Below the pieces are notes generated by a model that saw only the letters and a program-made list of their open reading frames with translations, made no database searches and was not told the origin of the DNA. This document shows positions 1-30,145 of a stretch of DNA of 30,145 bases, one piece after another. The DNA comes from a virus. Where the stretch lies: positions 1-30,145 of IMG/VR virus record IMGVR_UViG_3300031578_000247; one strand, written 5' to 3'. The stretch's first letter is position 1. Each line of letters begins with the position of its first letter. Made by a program: the position numbers and the translations under genes.

Positions 1-127
1 ATATACACGAAAATAGTTCACGTAACGACGTTAGAGAATGCGTAAGCCACAATAGTAAACAAGGTTATTCAGTTAAACAAACCCAACTACATTTAATGCT
101 TACTGGTACTTACAAAGAAGAATACGG
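1..127. repeat. Terminal direct overlap of the contig: nt 1-127 are identical to nt 30019-30145 (unit genome about 30,018 bp)
   Basis: Read directly: atatacacgaaaatagttcacg...caaagaagaatacgg is present at both window ends, and an ORF reads straight through the junction. 127 nt equals the largest default k-mer of common de Bruijn assemblers, so an assembly overlap is more likely than a physical terminal repeat. Confidence 0.9.
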
Positions 128-675: not shown

Positions 676-710
676 AACAAAACAAGGGGTGCGACTTGGT
701 AACGCACATT
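676..710 (+). promoter_or_regulatory. Copy 1 of an identical 35-nt element AACAAAACAAGGGGTGCGACTTGGTAACGCACATT with hairpin GTGCG-N9-CGCAC (nut/put-like candidate)
   Basis: 100% identical to 6612-6646. It begins right after the stop of the leader ORF, has a 5-bp stem (689-693 / 703-707) with a 9-nt loop, and has no U-tract after it. Confidence 0.5.
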
Positions 711-4116: not shown

Positions 4117-5196
4117 ATGTTAAAAGTAGGAAGCGACTTTTCGGGGGTTGGTGCATTTAATCAAGCCTTAATAAGATTAGGAAAACAATATAAAGAAGTT
4201 TTTGCGTGTGATATGGATAAATACGCACGACAAACATTTATAGAAAATTACGGAGAGCCAGAATACTATCCGACAAATGTTTACGATCGTAAAATACCTA
4301 TAGATAGTTTAGATATTTATATGACTTCTCCACCTTGTCAAGCATTTTCGTTAGCGGGAAAACGATTAGGAAAAGACGATAAACGCGGAATTTTATTCTT
4401 TAATTCTTACGAGTTTATTCAAGTAAACAAACCACGTTTTTTTATATTTGAAAATGTTAAGGGATTACTTTCGGACGATAACGGTAAGACCTTTAGTGAA
4501 TGGGTAAATATGTTAGGTGGTAAATCAGTTAACGGAGTACCAGTATTATTCCCTTACGAAGAATCCGTTCCTTATCATTTATATTGGAAAGTTCTAAACG
4601 CAAAAGAACACGGAGTACCACAAAACCGAGAACGTGTGTTTTTAATTGGTATTCGAGACGATTCGGATAATAAGTTTCAATTTCCAAAAGAAGAACATTT
4701 AACAAAACGTCTTAAAGACGTATTAGAAGAAAACGTAGAAGAAAAGTATTTTTTAAGCGAAAAAATGATTTCTCATTTAAATAATTACGAAAGGAGCGTT
4801 CCTTTTATTAATGAAAATACAATAAATGTAAAAACGATAACTTCCAACTATTCAAAACAAAGTAGCGATTTACAATATTTAAAAATTAAAAGCGCAACCG
4901 CCAAAGGTTACGAAGAAGCAACCGAAGGAGATTCAATAAATTTTAGTGTATTAAATAGTGAAACAAGAAGGGGAAGGGTAGGTAAACAAGTAGCACAAAC
5001 GTTAGATACTGCGTGCAATCAAGGGGTAATAAATAATTTTCAAATAAGACGTTTAACACCCCGTGAATGTTTTCGATTAATGGACTTCCCAAATACCTTT
5101 ACTTGGCCTGTATCGGATTCACAAGCATACAAACAAGCGGGTAATTCAATAGTAGTAAACGTTCTTTACAAAATACTAAAAAATTTGCCGTTATGA
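4117..5196 (+). CDS. dcm: DNA (cytosine-5)-methyltransferase
   Basis: All canonical C5-MTase motifs are present: I DFSGVGAF, IV PPCQAFS, VI FENVKGL, VIII QNRERVF, IX RRLTPRECFRLMDFP, X GNSIVVNV. Confidence 0.95.
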   Translation: MLKVGSDFSGVGAFNQALIRLGKQYKEVFACDMDKYARQTFIENYGEPEYYPTNVYDRKIPIDSLDIYMTSPPCQAFSLAGKRLGKDDKRGILFFNSYEFIQVNKPRFFIFENVKGLLSDDNGKTFSEWVNMLGGKSVNGVPVLFPYEESVPYHLYWKVLNAKEHGVPQNRERVFLIGIRDDSDNKFQFPKEEHLTKRLKDVLEENVEEKYFLSEKMISHLNNYERSVPFINENTINVKTITSNYSKQSSDLQYLKIKSATAKGYEEATEGDSINFSVLNSETRRGRVGKQVAQTLDTACNQGVINNFQIRRLTPRECFRLMDFPNTFTWPVSDSQAYKQAGNSIVVNVLYKILKNLPL

Positions 5197-5717: not shown

Positions 5718-6201
5718 AGAACTATCGAGTAACGAACACATTCAGCACTCACAAGAAACGGGAACGCAAGGCGAATACAATTTTATTCAAGCGTGTAAAA
5801 AAAACAAAATCGAATTTAAGAAATCTACCGCAAACGAGGATATATTTTCGCACGTGGACTTCTTTATTTACGGAAAAGGAATAGACGTTAAAGGCTATAA
5901 AAAAAGCCACTCCGAGGGGTTTATAGTTGTTGAGTTTAAGAACGTAAACGGGTACGCTGGTAGTTGCTCAAACGAATCTAACGCGGAATGGATAGCGTTT
6001 CAATTCGAGGAATGTTTTTGGATAGTACGAAAAGACGAACTATTAAGGTACTGCCGTAAAAACGTTAAAGTAGAAATGGTAAGCGAGTTTAAGGATTGTT
6101 ATAAGAAACTATACACCCGTAAAGACCGCAAAGACTTAATGACAAGGCTACATTTAAGCGACCTTAAAACCTTTAATTTTATTTGGAAGTTAAAGTTTTA
6201 G
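5698..6201 (+). CDS. Hypothetical protein with a possible PD-(D/E)xK nuclease core
   Basis: E..(GEYNFIQ), then HVDFF, then GIDVKGYKK, giving an E / D / (D/E)xK arrangement on predicted strand-helix elements. Motif-level only. Confidence 0.35.
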   Translation: MISNKAKELSSNEHIQHSQETGTQGEYNFIQACKKNKIEFKKSTANEDIFSHVDFFIYGKGIDVKGYKKSHSEGFIVVEFKNVNGYAGSCSNESNAEWIAFQFEECFWIVRKDELLRYCRKNVKVEMVSEFKDCYKKLYTRKDRKDLMTRLHLSDLKTFNFIWKLKF

Positions 6202-6242
6202 AATAATTTTAACATTTTTTAACAAATTAATTATATCGAAGT

Positions 6243-6273
6243 ATTGCTATTAAACTAATTACCTTTATATTTG
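6243..6273 (+). promoter_or_regulatory. Early promoter 2, Bacteroidota sigma-A type (-33 TTG at 6244-6246; -7 TAtaTTTG at 6266-6273)
   Basis: 19-nt spacer. The extended -7 TATATTTGTGTATA is nearly identical to promoter 1. It lies in a 94-nt AT-rich gap, with upstream phased TTTTAACA repeats at 6207 and 6217. Confidence 0.65.
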
Positions 6274-6295
6274 TGTATAATTAAAAACAAACGCT

Positions 6296-6613
6296 ATGAA
6301 AACAACAAATGAAATCTTAAAAATGACACATCAAGAATTGATTAATTCAAGTGATGAAATAAAACAAATGTATCGTGAAGCAAAAACAATGGAAAACTTA
6401 ACTAAAGCAACAAATTTAATTGCTCAGGGTTACAAGCACTTACAATTCCGACAAGGCGGATGTATTCAAAAAAAGAAAAATTCAAACGGTGAATTTTATG
6501 TAATTAAAAACGGGTACGGAACGGGAAAAGTAACAAACACTTTTTTAACATTAAAAGAATGTTTAATTGAATTACAAGGTTGCGGATGGGGAGAAATCGT
6601 AGAATATAAATAA
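6296..6613 (+). CDS. Early leader protein of cassette 2, 105 aa, hypothetical
   Basis: ORF track. Start context AACGCTATGAAAAC identical to gene 483-674. Followed immediately by the 35-nt element. Confidence 0.75.
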   Translation: MKTTNEILKMTHQELINSSDEIKQMYREAKTMENLTKATNLIAQGYKHLQFRQGGCIQKKKNSNGEFYVIKNGYGTGKVTNTFLTLKECLIELQGCGWGEIVEYK

Positions 6614-6646
6614 CAAAACAAGGGGTGCGACTTGGTAACGCACATT
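6612..6646 (+). promoter_or_regulatory. Copy 2 of the identical 35-nt hairpin element (nut/put-like candidate)
   Basis: 100% identical to 676-710. It overlaps the last 2 nt of the leader ORF stop, and the next ATG lies 14 nt downstream. Confidence 0.5.
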
Positions 6647-6659
6647 AATTTTATACGCT

Positions 6660-7187
6660 ATGAAACATTTATTTAAATCGTTGGCAGCCTTCCAACAGGA
6701 AGTACCCGTAATTCACAAGGGTACACAAGGCTTCGGGTATAGTTACGCAGATTTACCCGCTATCTTTGAAAAGATTAACCCACTACTAAAGAAACACGGA
6801 TTAGGGTTTACGCAGTTGTTAGACACTAAAGAAGGTGTCGACTATATTGCTACCGTTATTTTCCATATTGAAAGTGGCGAAACTTTAGAATCTAAAGTAG
6901 CCATTCCACAAGTTACGTTAAAAGGAATGAACGATTACCAATCATTCGGAAGCGGGGTTACTTACTTTAGAAGATACGCGCTTAGTTCCGCACTCGGATT
7001 AGTTACCGACAAAGACACGGACGCAAGTGGCGAACAAGTAAAACACGAACCAAAGAAACCTAATATCGACCAAAAGCGTTTAGGCAAAGCCTTAGAAGCA
7101 ATCGCAGAAGGTAAATACACTAAGGACGAACTACTGGCGAACTTTAGTTTAACTGATTCTCAAATCAAATTACTCGAAAACGTATGA
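6660..7187 (+). CDS. erf: ERF-family single-strand annealing recombinase
   Basis: FGYSYADLPAIFEKINPLLKKHGL...HIESGE...QSFGSGVTYFRRYALSSALGLVTDKDTDA matches the Erf family signature (Y.YA.L, sGe, G...TY.rRY, D.DdD). Confidence 0.85.
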   Translation: MKHLFKSLAAFQQEVPVIHKGTQGFGYSYADLPAIFEKINPLLKKHGLGFTQLLDTKEGVDYIATVIFHIESGETLESKVAIPQVTLKGMNDYQSFGSGVTYFRRYALSSALGLVTDKDTDASGEQVKHEPKKPNIDQKRLGKALEAIAEGKYTKDELLANFSLTDSQIKLLENV

Positions 7188-10089: not shown

Positions 10090-10116
10090 ACCCCGCCGTA
10101 AAAAGTGGGGTTTTTT
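10090..10116 (+). terminator. Rho-independent terminator ending early cassette 2
   Basis: ACCCCGC (10090-10096) pairs with GTGGGGT (10105-10111), including one G-U pair, with an 8-nt loop, then a T-run to 10116. Confidence 0.75.
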
Positions 10117-10123
10117 GTAAAAT

Positions 10124-10153
10124 TTTGTGTTTAGAAATTAATCATTATATTTG
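10124..10153 (+). promoter_or_regulatory. Promoter 3, Bacteroidota sigma-A type (-33 TTTG at 10124-10127; -7 TAtaTTTG at 10146-10153), driving the sigma-factor gene
   Basis: Consensus match with an 18-nt spacer, located between the terminator and the start at 10170. Confidence 0.6.
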
Positions 10154-20617: not shown

Positions 20618-21199
20618 ATGAGAATAATCGAACTTATAATAGACGAACAAGACGAACAAAGCGGTGTGGAAGCGGTAAGCGTGGTACATTCTCCCGCCAT
20701 AGAAGAAAGTTTTTTAGCTCTAAATAAACACGAAATTATATTAAAAGAAGTTGACACGGAGAAACGTATTTTAATGGGTGCGGCTTTAGTTCCAAATAAA
20801 CAAATTTACCGCAGAAACGCAAAGAACGAAGAATACTATATTTACTTCAGTTCGGACACGATCCGAAAAGCAAGTGAATTATTTTTAATGCGCTCAAATC
20901 AAAACAACGCAACGTATGAACACGAAAAGAAGTTAACAGGTTTAAGCGTGGTTGAATCGTGGATAATCGAAGACGAACAAAAAGACAAAAGCAAACTTTA
21001 CGGATTCGACTTACCTAAAGGAACTTGGATGATTTCAATGAAAGTAAATAACGAAGAAGTATGGAACGATGTTAAAGAAGGCAAAGTAAAAGGCTTTTCA
21101 ATAGAAGGTTATTTTGCTGATAAATTCGAAATGAGCGCGGAAGAATCCGAAGCAACCGAGGTGGTAAACGAACTTAAAAAACTATTAAACATAAAATAA
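20618..21199 (+). CDS. XkdF-like putative prohead serine protease (Peptidase_S78_2-like)
   Basis: GVEAVSVVHSPAIEESFLALNK and VVESWIIEDE...GTWMISMKVNNEEVWNDVKEGKVKGFSIEG match the recalled XkdF-family pattern. Confidence 0.55.
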   Translation: MRIIELIIDEQDEQSGVEAVSVVHSPAIEESFLALNKHEIILKEVDTEKRILMGAALVPNKQIYRRNAKNEEYYIYFSSDTIRKASELFLMRSNQNNATYEHEKKLTGLSVVESWIIEDEQKDKSKLYGFDLPKGTWMISMKVNNEEVWNDVKEGKVKGFSIEGYFADKFEMSAEESEATEVVNELKKLLNIK

Positions 21200-21201
21200 A
21201 A

Positions 21202-21576
21202 ATGAGCAACTTAAACACTATCCTAAACAAGTTAGGAAAAATAGAAGCAATCCACGAAACTAACTTAGGTAAACACGAAATCGAGTTAAGCATAAAAGAC
21301 AATGCAAAACAATTAGTATCAAAATATTACGGATTAACTGATACAATAAATTCTAAATATTCAGCAATACAAAAAGAAATTCGTCTTTTAACTGAAAAAA
21401 TAGACGAAGCAAATAAATTAGCAAACGAAATGCCTAAAGTTATTTCTAAATATGAAAATCTTGCTAAAGAATTGGGAATAGACGTAAACAATATTCAAGA
21501 ATTAAAAGATATGAATTTAGCCGTTAAGGATGTTGCTCAATATAAAACTTTGTCTTCTAAATTAAAATCTTTGTAA
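21202..21576 (+). CDS. Paralog family member 1 (124 aa), conserved N-terminal leader MSNLNTILNKLGKIEAIHETNLGKHEIEL
   Basis: ORF track. Its first 35 nt are identical to the start of 21589-21951. Shares the AKELGI motif. AT-rich. Confidence 0.8.
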   Translation: MSNLNTILNKLGKIEAIHETNLGKHEIELSIKDNAKQLVSKYYGLTDTINSKYSAIQKEIRLLTEKIDEANKLANEMPKVISKYENLAKELGIDVNNIQELKDMNLAVKDVAQYKTLSSKLKSL

Positions 21577-21588
21577 ATAATAAATAAA

Positions 21589-21951
21589 ATGAGCAACTTA
21601 AACACTATCCTAAACAAGTTAGGTAAAATCGAAAAAATACACGAAACGAATTTAGGTAAACACGAAGTTGAGTTAGGTATAATTCAAGACGATTTAAAAA
21701 AAATTATATCGGCTCAAAAGGACTTTGAAAATGCATTTTTAGTAATTTCCGCAGCAAGGCAAAAAGCTATTCCAATTATGAAAAACTCAATAACGACGGC
21801 AGAAAAATTTTTGGTTCAAGTAGAAAATGCAAAAAAAATAGCAAAAGAATTAGGGGTAAATTTACCAAAAGACTACTTAGACTTAAACCAAAAAGCAGGG
21901 GTTTTAGTTGGTGAGGCGCAAGACATTATCGATTGGCTTAATAAGTATTAA
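21589..21951 (+). CDS. Paralog family member 2 (120 aa), leader MSNLNTILNKLGKIEKIHETNLGKHEVEL
   Basis: ORF track. Near-identical 5' end of about 90 nt to member 1, with a diverged body. Carries the AKELGV motif. Confidence 0.8.
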   Translation: MSNLNTILNKLGKIEKIHETNLGKHEVELGIIQDDLKKIISAQKDFENAFLVISAARQKAIPIMKNSITTAEKFLVQVENAKKIAKELGVNLPKDYLDLNQKAGVLVGEAQDIIDWLNKY

Positions 21952-21967
21952 ACAATAAATAACTTTA

Positions 21968-22102
21968 ATGGCTAAACAAACAAGCGTAACTACTCACACT
22001 CGTAAACCAAAAGTAAAACGTCCTAACGTACACGCGAAAAGTAAAACGAGCAAACTAAAAACGAGTAAGAATTACGTAAAACTAAATAAAGGTCAAGGAT
22101 GA
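21968..22102 (+). CDS. Highly basic mini-protein, 44 aa (MAKQTSVTTHTRKPKVKRPNVHAKSKTSKLKTSKNYVKLNKGQG)
   Basis: Hand-translated; below the track cutoff. It has 13 Lys/Arg and no Asp/Glu, and an ATGA overlap with the next ORF at 22099. Confidence 0.5.
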   Translation: MAKQTSVTTHTRKPKVKRPNVHAKSKTSKLKTSKNYVKLNKGQG

Positions 22103-22281
22103 ACGAAAACGGGAACAAATCAAGAGCAAGTAGGACAAGCGGCAAACGCGCGTGCCTATGTAAAGATGGAACGTATAAACGAAAGTGCTGTACTGGCGAA
22201 CTACAAAACCAAGGAATCGGAAGCGACGTAACACCACCGCAACCCGTGCCACCCGCACCGAATTGGAATCCACTACCTTAA
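22099..22281 (+). CDS. Basic Cys-cluster / Pro-rich mini-protein, 60 aa
   Basis: ORF track. Contains CLCKDGTYKRKCC, then TPPQPVPPAPNWNPLP. Confidence 0.55.
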   Translation: MNENGNKSRASRTSGKRACLCKDGTYKRKCCTGELQNQGIGSDVTPPQPVPPAPNWNPLP

Positions 22282-22312
22282 AAATGCAACAAACAAAAAT
22301 TAAATAAGTTAT

Positions 22313-22729
22313 ATGATTATGAAAAACGTTTTAGACAAAATCAATAAGGCTCACGAAGTTGAAGCAACTAAGTTAGGTACGCACGAAGTTGAGTTAGCGT
22401 TAGTTGACGAATTAAATGCGTTAGAAGATAGGGGTTCTGCGATAGTAGAATTATTTACTAAAAACATAGATAAATTTGAGCAGTTAATTTTATCTATGGA
22501 AGATATTACAAAGAAAACTTCACAACAAAACGAAGTAGTAAATAATAATAAAGGTTTGGCGCAAAAGTGGGATAACGAAGTAACAAAAGTTTACTCAAAA
22601 GCATTAGATGCGGCTAAACAATTAGGAGTAAATAAAAACGATATTCAAGGTTTAGCTAAATTAGAAAAAACAATGATAGCCGTCCAAAACGCAATTAATA
22701 ACGCGCAAAAAATTGCAAAAAGATTTTAA
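22313..22729 (+). CDS. Paralog family member 3 (138 aa), leader MIMKNVLDKINKAHEVEATKLGTHEVEL
   Basis: ORF track. Shares the LG(K/T)HE(I/V)EL and AKQLGV motifs with members 1 and 2. Confidence 0.8.
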   Translation: MIMKNVLDKINKAHEVEATKLGTHEVELALVDELNALEDRGSAIVELFTKNIDKFEQLILSMEDITKKTSQQNEVVNNNKGLAQKWDNEVTKVYSKALDAAKQLGVNKNDIQGLAKLEKTMIAVQNAINNAQKIAKRF

Positions 22730-22745
22730 TTAATAAATAAACAAA

Positions 22746-23345
22746 ATGAAAAATAGCACACTATTAGAAAAAATCAAAGCGATGTTATCTAACGAAGTAA
22801 AGTTAGAACGAATGCTTATGGGCGACGGAGTAACCAAAATCGAAGCGGATTCTTTTGAAGCGGGTAAAGAGGTTTTTGTCGTAACGGAAGACGAACAAAA
22901 GATAGCCGTTCCCGTTGGAGAATACGAATTAGAAGACGGGCGTATTTTAGTTATCGTTGAAGAAGGTATTATTTCCGAAATCAAAGAAAAAGAAGAAGAA
23001 GTAGAAGAAGTTGAAGAGGAAGTAAAAGAAGAAGAGGTTGAAGCAATGCCCGAAGAAGAAATGAGCGCACCCGTTGCAACTCCTAAAAAAACTATTGAAT
23101 CCATTGTTAAAGAATCATTCTTTAGCGAAATGGAAAAACTTAAAGAAGAAAACGAAGCGTTAAAAGCAGAATTGGCTAAACTTTCCAAAGTTGACGCGAT
23201 CGCAAACGAAGCGACCGAACTTAGCGAAACACCTACCCCAATTTCTTTTAACCCCGAAAACGAAGCTAAAACCGAGTTTACTAAAATCGGTAAAAAAGCA
23301 CCACGCGGAATAATGGATTCCGTATTAGAAAAAATTAATAAATAA
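22746..23345 (+). CDS. Scaffolding-like acidic coiled-coil protein
   Basis: Directly upstream of the major capsid gene. Has a Glu-rich tract EKEEEVEEVEEEVKEEEVE and the coiled coil MEKLKEENEALKAELAKL. Confidence 0.5.
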   Translation: MKNSTLLEKIKAMLSNEVKLERMLMGDGVTKIEADSFEAGKEVFVVTEDEQKIAVPVGEYELEDGRILVIVEEGIISEIKEKEEEVEEVEEEVKEEEVEAMPEEEMSAPVATPKKTIESIVKESFFSEMEKLKEENEALKAELAKLSKVDAIANEATELSETPTPISFNPENEAKTEFTKIGKKAPRGIMDSVLEKINK

Positions 23346-29414: not shown

Positions 29415-30145
29415 ATGAACTTAATTAAACACGGAAAAAATATCCACGAATTACAATTAGTGGGTACACAAGTTCACGTAGCTATGCTATCGGACTTGCA
29501 TTTTGATAACCCTAAATGCGATTGGGTACTATTAAAAAAGCACTTGGACTTCTGCAAAGAGAACGACATACCAGTAATTATTAACGGGGATTTCTTTTGT
29601 TTAATGCAAGGACGCGGAGATAATCGACGCAATAAATCGGACATTAGACCCGAACACAATAACACCCGTTATTTAGATTCAATCGTGGAAACGGCTGCGG
29701 AATGGTTTGCGCCTTACGCGGATATTATAAAGGTTATAGGCTACGGAAACCACGAAACCGCTATTATTAAGTTTCAAGAAACAGACATTCTAAGGCGGTT
29801 TGTTGACTTGCTTAACTACAAATGCGGTTCAAACGTTCAAACGGGAGGGTATGGCGGTTGGATAATTATTAGACAAAAATTCTACGGAAATGCTAACGTA
29901 ACCACAAAGGTAAAATACTACCACGGGAGCGGTGGCGGTGGTGTCGTTACTAAAGGAGCGTTAAACCTTACGCGAGCGCTTGAAATGTACGAAGACTTCG
30001 ACGTGTTTACAATGGGACATATACACGAAAATAGTTCACGTAACGACGTTAGAGAATGCGTAAGCCACAATAGTAAACAAGGTTATTCAGTTAAACAAAC
30101 CCAACTACATTTAATGCTTACTGGTACTTACAAAGAAGAATACGG
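29415..30145 (+). CDS. Calcineurin-like metallophosphoesterase, 5' part (continues at nt 128-263 after the 127-nt overlap; full length 288 aa)
   Basis: Hand-translated; not in the ORF track because it runs off the window. Motifs: LSDLHFD (DxH), INGDFF (GD), GYGNHE (GNHE), MGHIHE (GHxH). Confidence 0.8.
   Translation, partial: MNLIKHGKNIHELQLVGTQVHVAMLSDLHFDNPKCDWVLLKKHLDFCKENDIPVIINGDFFCLMQGRGDNRRNKSDIRPEHNNTRYLDSIVETAAEWFAPYADIIKVIGYGNHETAIIKFQETDILRRFVDLLNYKCGSNVQTGGYGGWIIIRQKFYGNANVTTKVKYYHGSGGGGVVTKGALNLTRALEMYEDFDVFTMGHIHENSSRNDVRECVSHNSKQGYSVKQTQLHLMLTGTYKEEY
30019..30145. repeat. Second copy of the 127-nt contig-end overlap
   Basis: Identical to nt 1-127. Confidence 0.9.

Follow-up and report, generated by a model that had tools for sequence, protein, structure and literature searches.

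A probable RNA pseudoknot at the junctions of small mobile gene cassettes in the early operons of uncultured Bacteroidota phages

Introduction

Why is the same short segment found, letter for letter, downstream of both early promoters of a virus? The question is raised by IMG/VR virus record IMGVR_UViG_3300031578_000247, of which positions 1 to 30,145 were analyzed here; this whole stretch of 30,145 nucleotides is called the window throughout. The 35-mer AACAAAACAAGGGGTGCGACTTGGTAACGCACATT occurs in it exactly twice, at 676-710 and 6612-6646, both times on the + strand, and was matched in 0/100 dinucleotide-preserving shuffles. A sequence-only reading of the window had already pointed out the two identical + strand copies, an observation that our exact matches bear out, and had taken them for candidate antitermination sites of the nut/put type, with a DNA operator, an RNA processing site and a translational regulator of the second gene as alternatives. 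We describe the fold of the element, its distribution among related viruses and the genes that it separates, and weigh on this basis which of these roles, or which other one, it might have.

Results

Sequence and Fold of the Repeated Element

The two copies resemble each other over 66 nt in all (664-729 vs 6600-6665; 86% identity) and not beyond. The first 35-mer begins 1 nt past the stop codon of the open reading frame (ORF) 483-674, the second overlaps the stop codon of ORF 6296-6613, and each ends 13 nt before the next ATG (724 and 6660, respectively), so that the earlier placement of the element at the stop codon of a small ORF and about 14 nt before an ATG is confirmed.

The core of the repeat is very probably a 25-nt H-type RNA pseudoknot. 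In copy 1 (683-707, + strand), which is supported by covariation, helix S1 pairs 683-686 with 695-698 (CAAG:CUUG), loop L1 is the GG at 687-688, helix S2 pairs 689-693 with 703-707 (GUGCG:CGCAC), L2 is a single A at 694 and L3 is the GUAA at 699-702. Copy 2 (6619-6643, + strand) has an identical core, in which 6619-6622 pairs with 6631-6634 to form S1 and 6625-6629 with 6639-6643 to form S2. The segments follow each other in the order a-b-a'-b', that is, the helices are interleaved, and the fold therefore belongs to the H-type. The sequence-only reading had seen an A/C-rich single-stranded tract and a stem with a 9-nt loop; its stem, GTGCG/CGCAC, stands, but the CUUG of the supposed loop pairs with the CAAG at 683-686. 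The energies of the two helices, scored separately in ViennaRNA since pseudoknots cannot be scored there, are both favorable (-3.7 and -6.2 kcal/mol).

Relatives were sampled through neighboring proteins and not through the element itself, namely through Erf, through the phosphoesterase-like gene of a lineage of 50% GC and through the window's own copy of the phosphoesterase-like gene, and each of these protein-anchored searches yielded at least about 600 relatives. The pseudoknot is carried by two lineages, of 37% and 50% GC, whose proteins are only 25-48% identical. Its consensus reads CAAG:CUUG for S1, GG for L1, GYGCG:CGCRC for S2, 1 nt for L2 and 3-5 nt ending in AA for L3. In S1, both arms change together, from CAAG...CUUG to CGAG...CUCG or UAAG...CUUA, with the G.U intermediates CGAG...CUUG and UAAG...CUUG also present, and a register-shifted form, CGGG...UCCG, occurs as well. 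In S2, GUGCG/CGCAC is replaced by GCGCG/CGCGC, a compensatory change of the kind that the sequence-only reading had proposed to look for in relatives. Over 21 distinct variants, one of which has a terminal C.A mismatch and one of which, the register-shifted form, is scored as partly unpaired in the fixed alignment, 97.4% of the cells hold standard pairs, whereas partners slid by 1-3 columns reach 7-60%. The covariation score was attained by 0/500 shuffles (a 16-variant version was scored in addition to that with 21 variants). Double changes are seen at S1 2:15 (AU 9, GC 10, GU 2), S1 1:16 (CG, UG, UA) and S2 8:25 (UA 15, CG 6); since the contigs are related and the cells not independent, these counts overstate the number of independent events, which has to be set against the reading developed below.

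Moreover, the pairing of either helix is recovered when the search is guided by the other one. S1 pairing is kept in a search that constrains S2 only, and in a search that constrains S1 only, S2 has 5/5 pairs in all 168 family members, while the matches with 0-4 pairs are all unrelated background. All four combinations of S1 state and S2 state were found, in the lineage of 37% GC as well as in that of 50% GC. Compensatory changes and G.U intermediates in two interleaved helices argue for selection on the pairing of a single strand. The earlier suggestion that the element itself is under selection is thus upheld.

The same data bear on the reading of the element as a double-stranded DNA (dsDNA) operator, TGCG-N9-CGCA, for a dimeric repressor, or as a roadblock similar to a stoperator. 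The 5-bp inverted repeat would suit such a site, and its arms change together from T/A to C/G; the stoperators of mycobacteriophages are oriented and placed between genes, which resembles the placement of the element. The second inverted repeat is however interleaved with the first (a-b-a'-b'), which is not the geometry of an operator, intermediates of the G.U type (CGCAT, CGAG:CTTG, TAAG:CTTG) occur, the strand is always the sense strand, and the 'spacer' is conserved beyond what an operator would require. Stoperators are, moreover, many asymmetric dsDNA sites dispersed genome-wide, unlike the two copies in the window, both of which lie at cassette junctions. The palindrome TTAGAATAATTCTAA upstream of both promoters is a better candidate for a repressor operator, as judged from its sequence, and we regard an operator function of the 35-nt element, which the sequence-only reading had listed, as hardly credible.

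L1 GG, the AA of L3 and three S2 pairs are invariant, while L2 and the first positions of L3 vary freely. H-type pseudoknots are common aptamer folds, and the invariant unpaired GG and AA might be taken to suggest a very small riboswitch, in which a ligand-binding pseudoknot controls the next gene. Against this speak the freely varying loop positions, the unrelated genes that follow the element and the lack of an Rfam match, the Rfam 15 covariance-model search having given none at E<=1 anywhere in the window. To our knowledge, 25 nt is smaller than any known aptamer. A riboswitch thus appears exceedingly improbable.

Several further interpretations of the fold and its surroundings were tried and rejected. 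Pairing of an SD-like GGGGUG (SD, Shine-Dalgarno) with the anti-SD is contradicted by the change U8->C8, which breaks the match and yet is compensated within S2. An extension of S2 through the loop (A-U, C-G) is not kept in the variants. A larger fold that includes the flanks gives z = -2.65 for copy 2, but these flanks are not conserved between copies or loci. Recoding, readthrough or fusion was dismissed on the grounds that the length from stop to ATG modulo 3 is distributed as 46/31/25 and that stop codons are often doubled (TAATAA). Indeed, pseudoknots that promote -1 frameshifting or readthrough are alike in fold class and lie 5-9 nt downstream of the A-site codon; here, in contrast, the upstream codon is a stop, often doubled, and the next ORF has no constant frame relative to the upstream one (the same 46/31/25). 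No slippery heptamer is present in frame before the stop, and no fusion product is expected.

Distribution of the Pseudoknot

The exact 22-mer of the element is present at 84 IMG/VR loci whose flanks are otherwise non-alignable. A scan with a pattern of 14 specified bases gave mostly chance matches, but brought out the 50%-GC lineage. The copies always lie on the strand of the genes (34 sense and 0 opposite in the phosphoesterase sample). The phosphoesterase-like neighbor is the only early-region protein that is clearly shared between the 37%-GC and 50%-GC lineages. Blastn searches of INPHARED with the early region and the element yielded no real match, only two chance matches to Klebsiella phages, and Nonlabens phage P12024S, the nearest cultured phage by its portal protein, shares the phosphatase-erf-exonuclease synteny without having the pseudoknot. 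No earlier description of the motif was found in the literature. The pseudoknot is a previously undescribed, unclassified RNA motif of a large uncultured group of freshwater Bacteroidota phages.

In a relaxed-pattern scan of 185,579 species genomes, only three contigs of metagenome-assembled genomes (MAGs) were matched, with one copy each and no tandem arrays. These three 'cellular' contigs (L085-L087), assigned to a MAG of Pseudomonadota and to one of Candidatus Fonsibacter lacus, are probably phage contigs that were mis-binned by composition or coverage. This result is relevant to the idea that the element serves counter-defense as an early RNA decoy or mimic (of a type III antitoxin pseudoknot, a solitary CRISPR-repeat-like RNA or a tRNA arm) that is released from A-rich flanks. 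A small pseudoknot with A-rich flanks, made in the earliest transcripts, reiterable, and placed beside ORFan cargo that may consist of anti-defense genes, would be suited to this purpose. The near-absence of the motif from species genomes, however, leaves the host without a detectable repeat or antitoxin to be mimicked, the copies are spaced by genes and not arranged in tandem, and we consider a decoy very improbable. A tRNA anticodon-arm reading would place a pyrimidine at position 37, and its 'anticodon' bases would be those of S1 and L3; this mimic was rejected.

Genes on Either Side of the Element

In the window, copy 1 is preceded by a small ORF of 63 aa (483-674, + strand), here called leader or cargo ORF 1, an ORFan with no Pfam match and only a marginal PHROG match, and by an A-rich linker of 8 nt between its stop codon and the pseudoknot (675-682). 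The pseudoknot is followed by an AU-rich translation initiation region (TIR; 708-723), and this by the first core gene of operon 1 (724-888, + strand; 54 aa, beginning with METIIKAYEQEL). Copy 2 follows leader ORF 2 (6296-6613, + strand; 105 aa), likewise an ORFan with no Pfam match and a marginal PHROG match only, and precedes the AU-rich TIR (6644-6659) of erf (6660-7187, + strand), the first core gene of operon 2, which encodes an Erf-family single-strand annealing protein (Pfam ERF 4e-30; PHROG Erf-like).

This arrangement recurs in the relatives. At the 22-mer loci the order is constant, i.e., -7 box, small ORF, stop, A-rich linker, pseudoknot, short TIR and ATG of a conserved gene; the -7 box, TAnnTTTG, lies 22-38 nt before the small ORF, which encodes 41-105 aa of highly variable sequence. 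In the three protein-anchored samples, the pseudoknot always stands behind a small ORFan leader gene, itself behind an early promoter of the Bacteroidota type, and it is never present in relatives in which the core gene directly follows the promoter. At 102 non-redundant junctions, the linker from the stop codon to the pseudoknot measures 3-12 nt, with modes at 5 and 8 and alike in both lineages, whereas the distance from the pseudoknot to the ATG is lineage-specific: the 37%-GC lineage has an AU-rich leader of 14-19 nt and the 50%-GC lineage a C/A-rich one of 26-30 nt. No TAnnTTTG box is found between pseudoknot and next ATG, and a promoter inside the element was rejected, since the spacer between the loop TTG and TAATTTAA is 11 nt and does not fit the -33/-7 geometry.

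Filled and empty sites can be compared directly. In operon 1 of seven relatives (L392, L398, L399, L403, L406, L409 and L410), which lack leader ORF 1, the early promoter P1 of the window and its 5' untranslated region (UTR) are followed immediately by ATGGAAACAATT, the homolog of gene 724-888. In the window, the same 5'UTR is followed by the 63-aa leader ORF, the linker, the pseudoknot, a second copy of the TIR (AATTAAAACGCT before the ATG, the right-hand copy, at 708-723) and gene 724-888; the left-hand copy of the TIR lies at about 466-482, before the ATG of leader ORF 1. The comparison therefore defines the insert as ORF plus linker plus pseudoknot, flanked by a duplication of the TIR. We also note that a start context, ACGCT-ATG-RAAAC, is common to independently starting genes (474-490, 716-732, 6288-6304 and 6652-6668), many of which begin with MKT, and that the left boundary of the cargo slot accordingly extends into the first codons of the leader ORF.

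At the erf-anchored loci, 37/80 have leader ORF, pseudoknot and erf, and in 34/80 the promoter lies directly before erf, with no pseudoknot anywhere in the locus. The 50%-GC lineage behaves likewise: L324 and L363, in which the promoter is followed by the core gene, have no pseudoknot, and L295, L348, L365 and L338 carry an extra ORF plus pseudoknot. L133 has, on the minus strand at about 6450-7050, four small ORFs under a single promoter, which are separated by three successive pseudoknots at intervals of 250-280 nt; at its next junction, the leader ATTCTTT...AACCCTCTAAACCC is kept and the 26-nt pseudoknot unit is missing.

The cargo is shuffled extensively. The 102 junctions combine 52 leader families with 23 downstream families; of the leader families, 23 are found before erf and 14 before a 54-aa gene, and 13 are joined to at least two different downstream genes. 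The family of leader ORF 1, for instance, is also present in L006, where it is joined to another downstream gene. One leader family is common to the 37%-GC and 50%-GC lineages (L252 and L133; ...IGS[RK]LYWSD.P.ILAG...), which suggests, on the strength of this sequence match, an exchange of cargo across compositionally very different phages. The linker sequence moves with the leader ORF and the TIR sequence with the downstream gene, and the pseudoknot is the joint that they share. Leader ORFs gave no Pfam or PHROG family.

These observations could be taken to mean that the element is purely a linker for recombination at the DNA level, without an RNA function, and that its identity reflects recent horizontal spread. 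Empty and filled sites, combinatorial shuffling with breakpoints at the element, identical 22-mers in non-alignable contexts and the presence of genes for Erf, an exonuclease and NinG are all in keeping with this. Compensatory and G.U-intermediate changes in two interleaved helices, the strict confinement to the sense strand and the preservation of the sequence in a lineage of very different base composition are not, and a linker of this kind alone is very unlikely.

Transcriptional Readings

Two readings place the function of the element in transcription. According to the first, that of the sequence-only reading, the nascent RNA would, by itself or together with a phage factor, alter RNA polymerase in such a way that it passes terminators, as in nut/put-type processive antitermination. 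The element is indeed, like lambda nut and HK022 put, a cis-acting sense-strand RNA element transcribed early, soon after both early promoters and the first small gene; lambda nutR follows cro, the first small gene, and boxB is a short stem with a GNRA-like pentaloop that is bound by N. Moreover, the replication genes are preceded, at about 2261-2313, by a terminator-like hairpin with a U-run, and some relatives have a small terminator-like hairpin at the same junction as the pseudoknot. Nevertheless, the erf operon occurs without the pseudoknot in 34/80 relatives, 22/31 relatives that keep the spacer 2206-2332 have none upstream, and the copy number follows the inserted small ORFs, so that the element is facultative, with 0-3 copies per operon and not one. 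Neither boxA, nor a loop of the boxB type, nor the two-stem architecture of put is present. For boxA (CGCUCUUA, or UGCUCUUUAACAA of rrn), no match lies within 100 nt of either copy; the nearest match with one mismatch, at 569, falls inside the leader ORF and is one of nine chance-level + strand matches. The loop here is 9-10 nt long, unlike that of lambda boxB, and four of its bases pair with the 5' flank. HK022 put RNA is about 65-70 nt long with two stem-loops, in contrast to a single 25-nt pseudoknot with unconserved flanks. Essentially all ORFs of the window gave no Pfam or PHROG match to RNA polymerase, sigma factor, integrase, antiterminator or RNA-binding families, and no N-like or Q-like protein was recognized among them by family match, of which small ORFans could hide one.

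It had also been argued that strong terminators downstream have to be read through. The terminators themselves are real, being listed by our scan at 282, 10090, 24315 and 24950, but the strong one at 10090-10111 is directly followed by a predicted promoter, P3, with its consensus -7 box at 10146, so that the late genes have, as judged from the consensus, a promoter of their own. Since the same operons and the terminator-like spacer occur without the element and late genes have their own promoter, a nut/put role is disfavored, and we hold it to be quite unlikely.

According to the second, S2 and the U-rich stretch that follows it form a transcriptional attenuator or pause site, i.e., a weak, possibly factor-stabilized terminator, which would keep the expression of the downstream operon far below that of the cargo. 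AUUUAA, GUUUUAAUUU or AUUCUUUU comes after the pseudoknot; GCUCG-GAAAGA-CGAGC with a U-run stands at the same position in L221, L240, L241 and L285; and the promoter-early stem-loops (PeSLs) of T4-type phages act as terminators or attenuators (PMC2839356). On the other hand, the terminator scan makes no call at either copy (683-720 and 6619-6656), in agreement with the earlier statement that the element is not a plain intrinsic terminator: a GC-rich hairpin with a loop of 3-8 nt directly followed by a U-tract is not what is found, but a 5-bp stem with a loop of 9-10 nt, after which U-richness is only partial. The U-rich stretch also belongs to the TIR and is retained at the L133 junction that has no hairpin. 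Termination would leave the selection on S1 pairing and the invariant loop bases unexplained, and would, if efficient, shut off essential genes, since there is no promoter behind the element. Attenuation therefore seems to us distinctly improbable.

Genome, Promoters and Other Features of the Window

The identical overlap of 127 nt that joins both ends of the window (1-127 = 30019-30145) indicates one complete phage genome of about 30,018 bp, circularly permuted or terminally redundant. The + strand carries all genes; the early region encodes, by Pfam and PHROG matches, a DnaA_C-type helix-turn-helix protein, a DUF6291/primosomal-like protein, a helicase-like protein, a C5 methyltransferase, NinG, Erf and a RecE-like exonuclease, and the late region terminase, portal, protease, tape measure, holin and amidase. 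No tRNAs were found in the window. The nearest cultured relatives of the portal protein are Nonlabens (Flavobacteriaceae) phages, at 36% identity, from which we infer a Bacteroidota host.

Promoters recognized by sigma-A of Bacteroidota have the consensus -33 TTTG / -7 TANNTTTG, with transcription starting 4-5 nt past the -7 box (PMC6847099). Three intergenic sites of the window match it, all on the + strand. The early promoter P1 (415-446) has its -33 TTTG at 415-418 and its -7 box, TATATTTG, at 439-446, and is also present, with its 5'UTR, in the empty-site relatives. P2 (6244-6273), likewise an early promoter, has a -33 TTG at 6244-6246 and the same TATATTTG at 6266-6273; in 34/80 relatives, erf itself has an equivalent -7 box about 22-23 nt ahead of it. 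P3 (TTG-18-TATATTTG, -7 box 10146-10153) precedes the structural genes. Upstream of P1 and P2 lie a perfect 15-bp palindrome, TTAGAATAATTCTAA (366-380), and its near-copy TTAGAATAATTTTAA (6198-6212), each about 60-70 nt before the -7 box, and a similar site is present in 19/246 related loci.

A 288-aa ORF wraps around the ends of the window, from 29415-30018 on into 1-263, and stands just upstream of P1 in both lineages. By eye it has the motifs of a metallophosphoesterase (DxH, GD, GNHE, GHxH), without a Pfam match, and its counterpart by position in Nonlabens phage P12024S is gp16, whose annotation gives a metallo-dependent phosphatase domain.

The small early genes are separated from the replication genes by the spacer 2206-2332 (127 nt), which contains a -7-like box, TATCTTTG (2211-2218), and then the hairpin ending in a U-run mentioned above. 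It is kept at 74-92% identity in 31 relatives; its overall fold as a structured RNA is not significant (z = 0.17), and from its sequence it may represent a promoter plus attenuator. In the late region, the small genes 21202-21576, 21589-21951 and 22313-22729 have in common a 5' segment repeated at 76-82% identity (21177-21295, 21564-21682 and 22366-22410), and these three neighbors (21202-22729) are, on sequence grounds, apparently tandem paralogs. A GAA/GAG-rich repeat with a period of 9 nt at 22975-23055 codes for an acidic E/K/V-rich stretch of ORF 22746-23345, the product of which may be scaffold-like.

Discussion

The evidence assembled above led us to favor, tentatively and at a little less than an even chance for the account as a whole, a reading in which the pseudoknot is a post-transcriptional boundary of cassettes that serves as a recombination joint at the same time. 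That it marks cassette boundaries and acts as a recombination joint is probable; the specific mechanism of insulation or processing is a possibility that we hold more loosely than the account itself. In this account, the pseudoknot would be the 3' end of small mobile ORFan cassettes, whose place is behind an early promoter of Bacteroidota sigma-A and before the first core gene of an early operon, and would form a boundary, or insulator, that acts in cis within the polycistronic early mRNA. Folding autonomously 5-9 nt past the stop codon of the cargo, it would abut the terminating ribosome, and it would lie just outside the unstructured window from -20 to +20 that SD-less mRNAs require at the next start codon; in Bacteroidota, initiation needs an unstructured A-rich TIR and no SD (PMC6847099). 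Ribosomes, exonucleases and misfolding might in this way be kept from crossing the junction, and arbitrary cargo would leave the expression of the core genes intact. The pseudoknot may also set a point of mRNA processing or stabilization. The alternatives of a translational regulator of the second gene or an RNA processing site, which had been listed at the outset, come close to this reading. Since it is conserved, the pseudoknot could moreover provide about 25-45 nt of homology for an exchange of cargo ORFs that would depend on Erf, the exonuclease and NinG; conserved intergenic motifs are able to mediate the shuffling of ORFans (PMC2839356).

A number of observations weigh against this reading, in addition to the relatedness of the contigs behind the covariation counts. 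The GTGCG/CGCAC stem (-6.2 kcal/mol; z -0.5 to -1.5) is thermodynamically not unusual alone. Other arrangements at the erf-anchored loci (9/80) include leader ORFs without pseudoknot, and L341 of the 50%-GC lineage has an extra ORF without it, so that the pseudoknot appears to be dispensable. In L041, the leader ORF (4215-4387) has no stop before the pseudoknot, is read through it and stops 3 nt after it, so that ribosomes must unwind the pseudoknot there. In L240 (2416-2500), and also in L221, L241 and L285, the junction of leader and erf is an 85-nt spacer in which GCUCG-GAAAGA-CGAGC and up to seven U replace the pseudoknot and no promoter follows; this hairpin looks, from its sequence, like a small intrinsic terminator or attenuator, and the function of the site could therefore be transcriptional. 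Insulation, processing and stabilization are inferred from geometry alone. The strongest objection is that an insulator does not obviously need extreme sequence conservation, which, seen even between lineages, hints at a specific partner, be it a host machine or a protein acting in trans, or else at a horizontal spread in recent times.

The main rival takes up the hint of a partner and reads the element as a translational operator for a protein acting in trans (SSB-like, i.e., similar to a single-stranded DNA-binding protein, or Erf, or another phage or host protein), which would nucleate on the pseudoknot and spread over the TIR to repress or time the next gene. The architecture is that of the gene 32 operator of T4, in which a 5' pseudoknot of about 28 nt is followed by an unstructured leader rich in UUAAA/UAAA that contains the ribosome binding site (PMC535899); here, a 25-nt pseudoknot precedes an AU-rich TIR of 14-19 nt. 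The invariant unpaired GG and AA and the invariant core of S2 suggest a specific ligand as well. The element precedes, however, at least 23 unrelated gene families, and is therefore not autogenous; no RNA-binding or SSB family was detected among the window ORFs (Pfam, PHROG); the phosphoesterase-like neighbor alone is clearly shared between the early regions of the lineages; the distance from pseudoknot to ATG differs by lineage, and the leader of the 50%-GC lineage is C/A-rich and not AU-rich; and about half of the relatives presumably express their core genes in the absence of the element. An operator of this kind is, in our judgment, unlikely.

In its architecture, as far as the analogy goes, the element is closest to the gene 32 operator, and in its evolutionary behavior to the PeSL cassettes and, more loosely, to integron cassettes. 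With the operator of T4 and RB69, it shares a compact pseudoknot (about 25-28 nt) and, immediately 3' of it, a short unstructured A/U-rich leader that contains the ribosome binding site of an early phage gene. The operator of T4, in contrast, is autogenous, a single site before the SSB gene that is bound by that SSB, while the element is inserted together with a cassette, precedes at least 23 gene families and is absent when the gene directly follows the promoter; the two have no sequence relationship, and the element has no identified binding protein. In PeSL cassettes, too, conserved intergenic stem-loop motifs border the ORFans of plastic early regions, an empty site is short of one ORFan and one motif relative to a filled one, and the motifs provide homology for modular shuffling (PMC2839356). 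PeSLs carry a sigma-70 promoter of their own, and their stem-loop is a terminator (PMC2839356), whereas the element has no promoter before the next ATG, receives no terminator call and is a pseudoknot with covariation at the RNA level.

Integron cassettes (a promoterless ORF plus attC, beside Pc) are comparable as promoter-proximal arrays of co-oriented, promoterless and diverse small ORFs, each followed by a conserved structured element, and 'empty' platforms exist as well. No tyrosine recombinase or integrase family was found, unlike in integrons, among the window ORFs scanned with Pfam and PHROG. The attC sites are imperfect single-stranded DNA hairpins of 57-141 nt with R''/L'' and L'/R' boxes and low sequence conservation; the element differs in being 25 nt long, conserved in sequence and flanked by a duplicated TIR, and this duplication points to homologous recombination. 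Since it departs in at least one defining feature from each of the gene 32 operator, PeSL and integron families, the element is best regarded as an unclassified RNA motif and a member of none of them. It is conceivable, if unlikely, that it belongs to an integron-like cassette system of abundant freshwater Bacteroidota phages in need of no dedicated recombinase, with the pseudoknot as a new class of ligand for a conserved machine of the host, the SD-independent Bacteroidota ribosome or RNA polymerase, that makes insertion at the head of an operon neutral for expression, i.e., a natural insulator.

A very small structured RNA motif with comparative support, widespread in uncultured freshwater Bacteroidota phages, extends the concept of mobile regulatory cassettes, as known from PeSLs, to an unrelated group of phages and adds a component at the RNA level. 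It also defines a hypervariable slot at the start of early operons, bounded by a conserved promoter and TIR on one side and by the pseudoknot on the other, in which at least 52 ORFan families are exchanged. The position and timing of this slot are as expected for genes of host takeover or counter-defense, and the pseudoknot might hence be used as a beacon for such genes in metagenomes. As initiation in Bacteroidota is independent of SD sequences, an RNA device at the boundary of cistrons would inform on how internal cistrons are insulated and initiated in these bacteria, and the pseudoknot could serve as a part for the genetic engineering of Bacteroidota.

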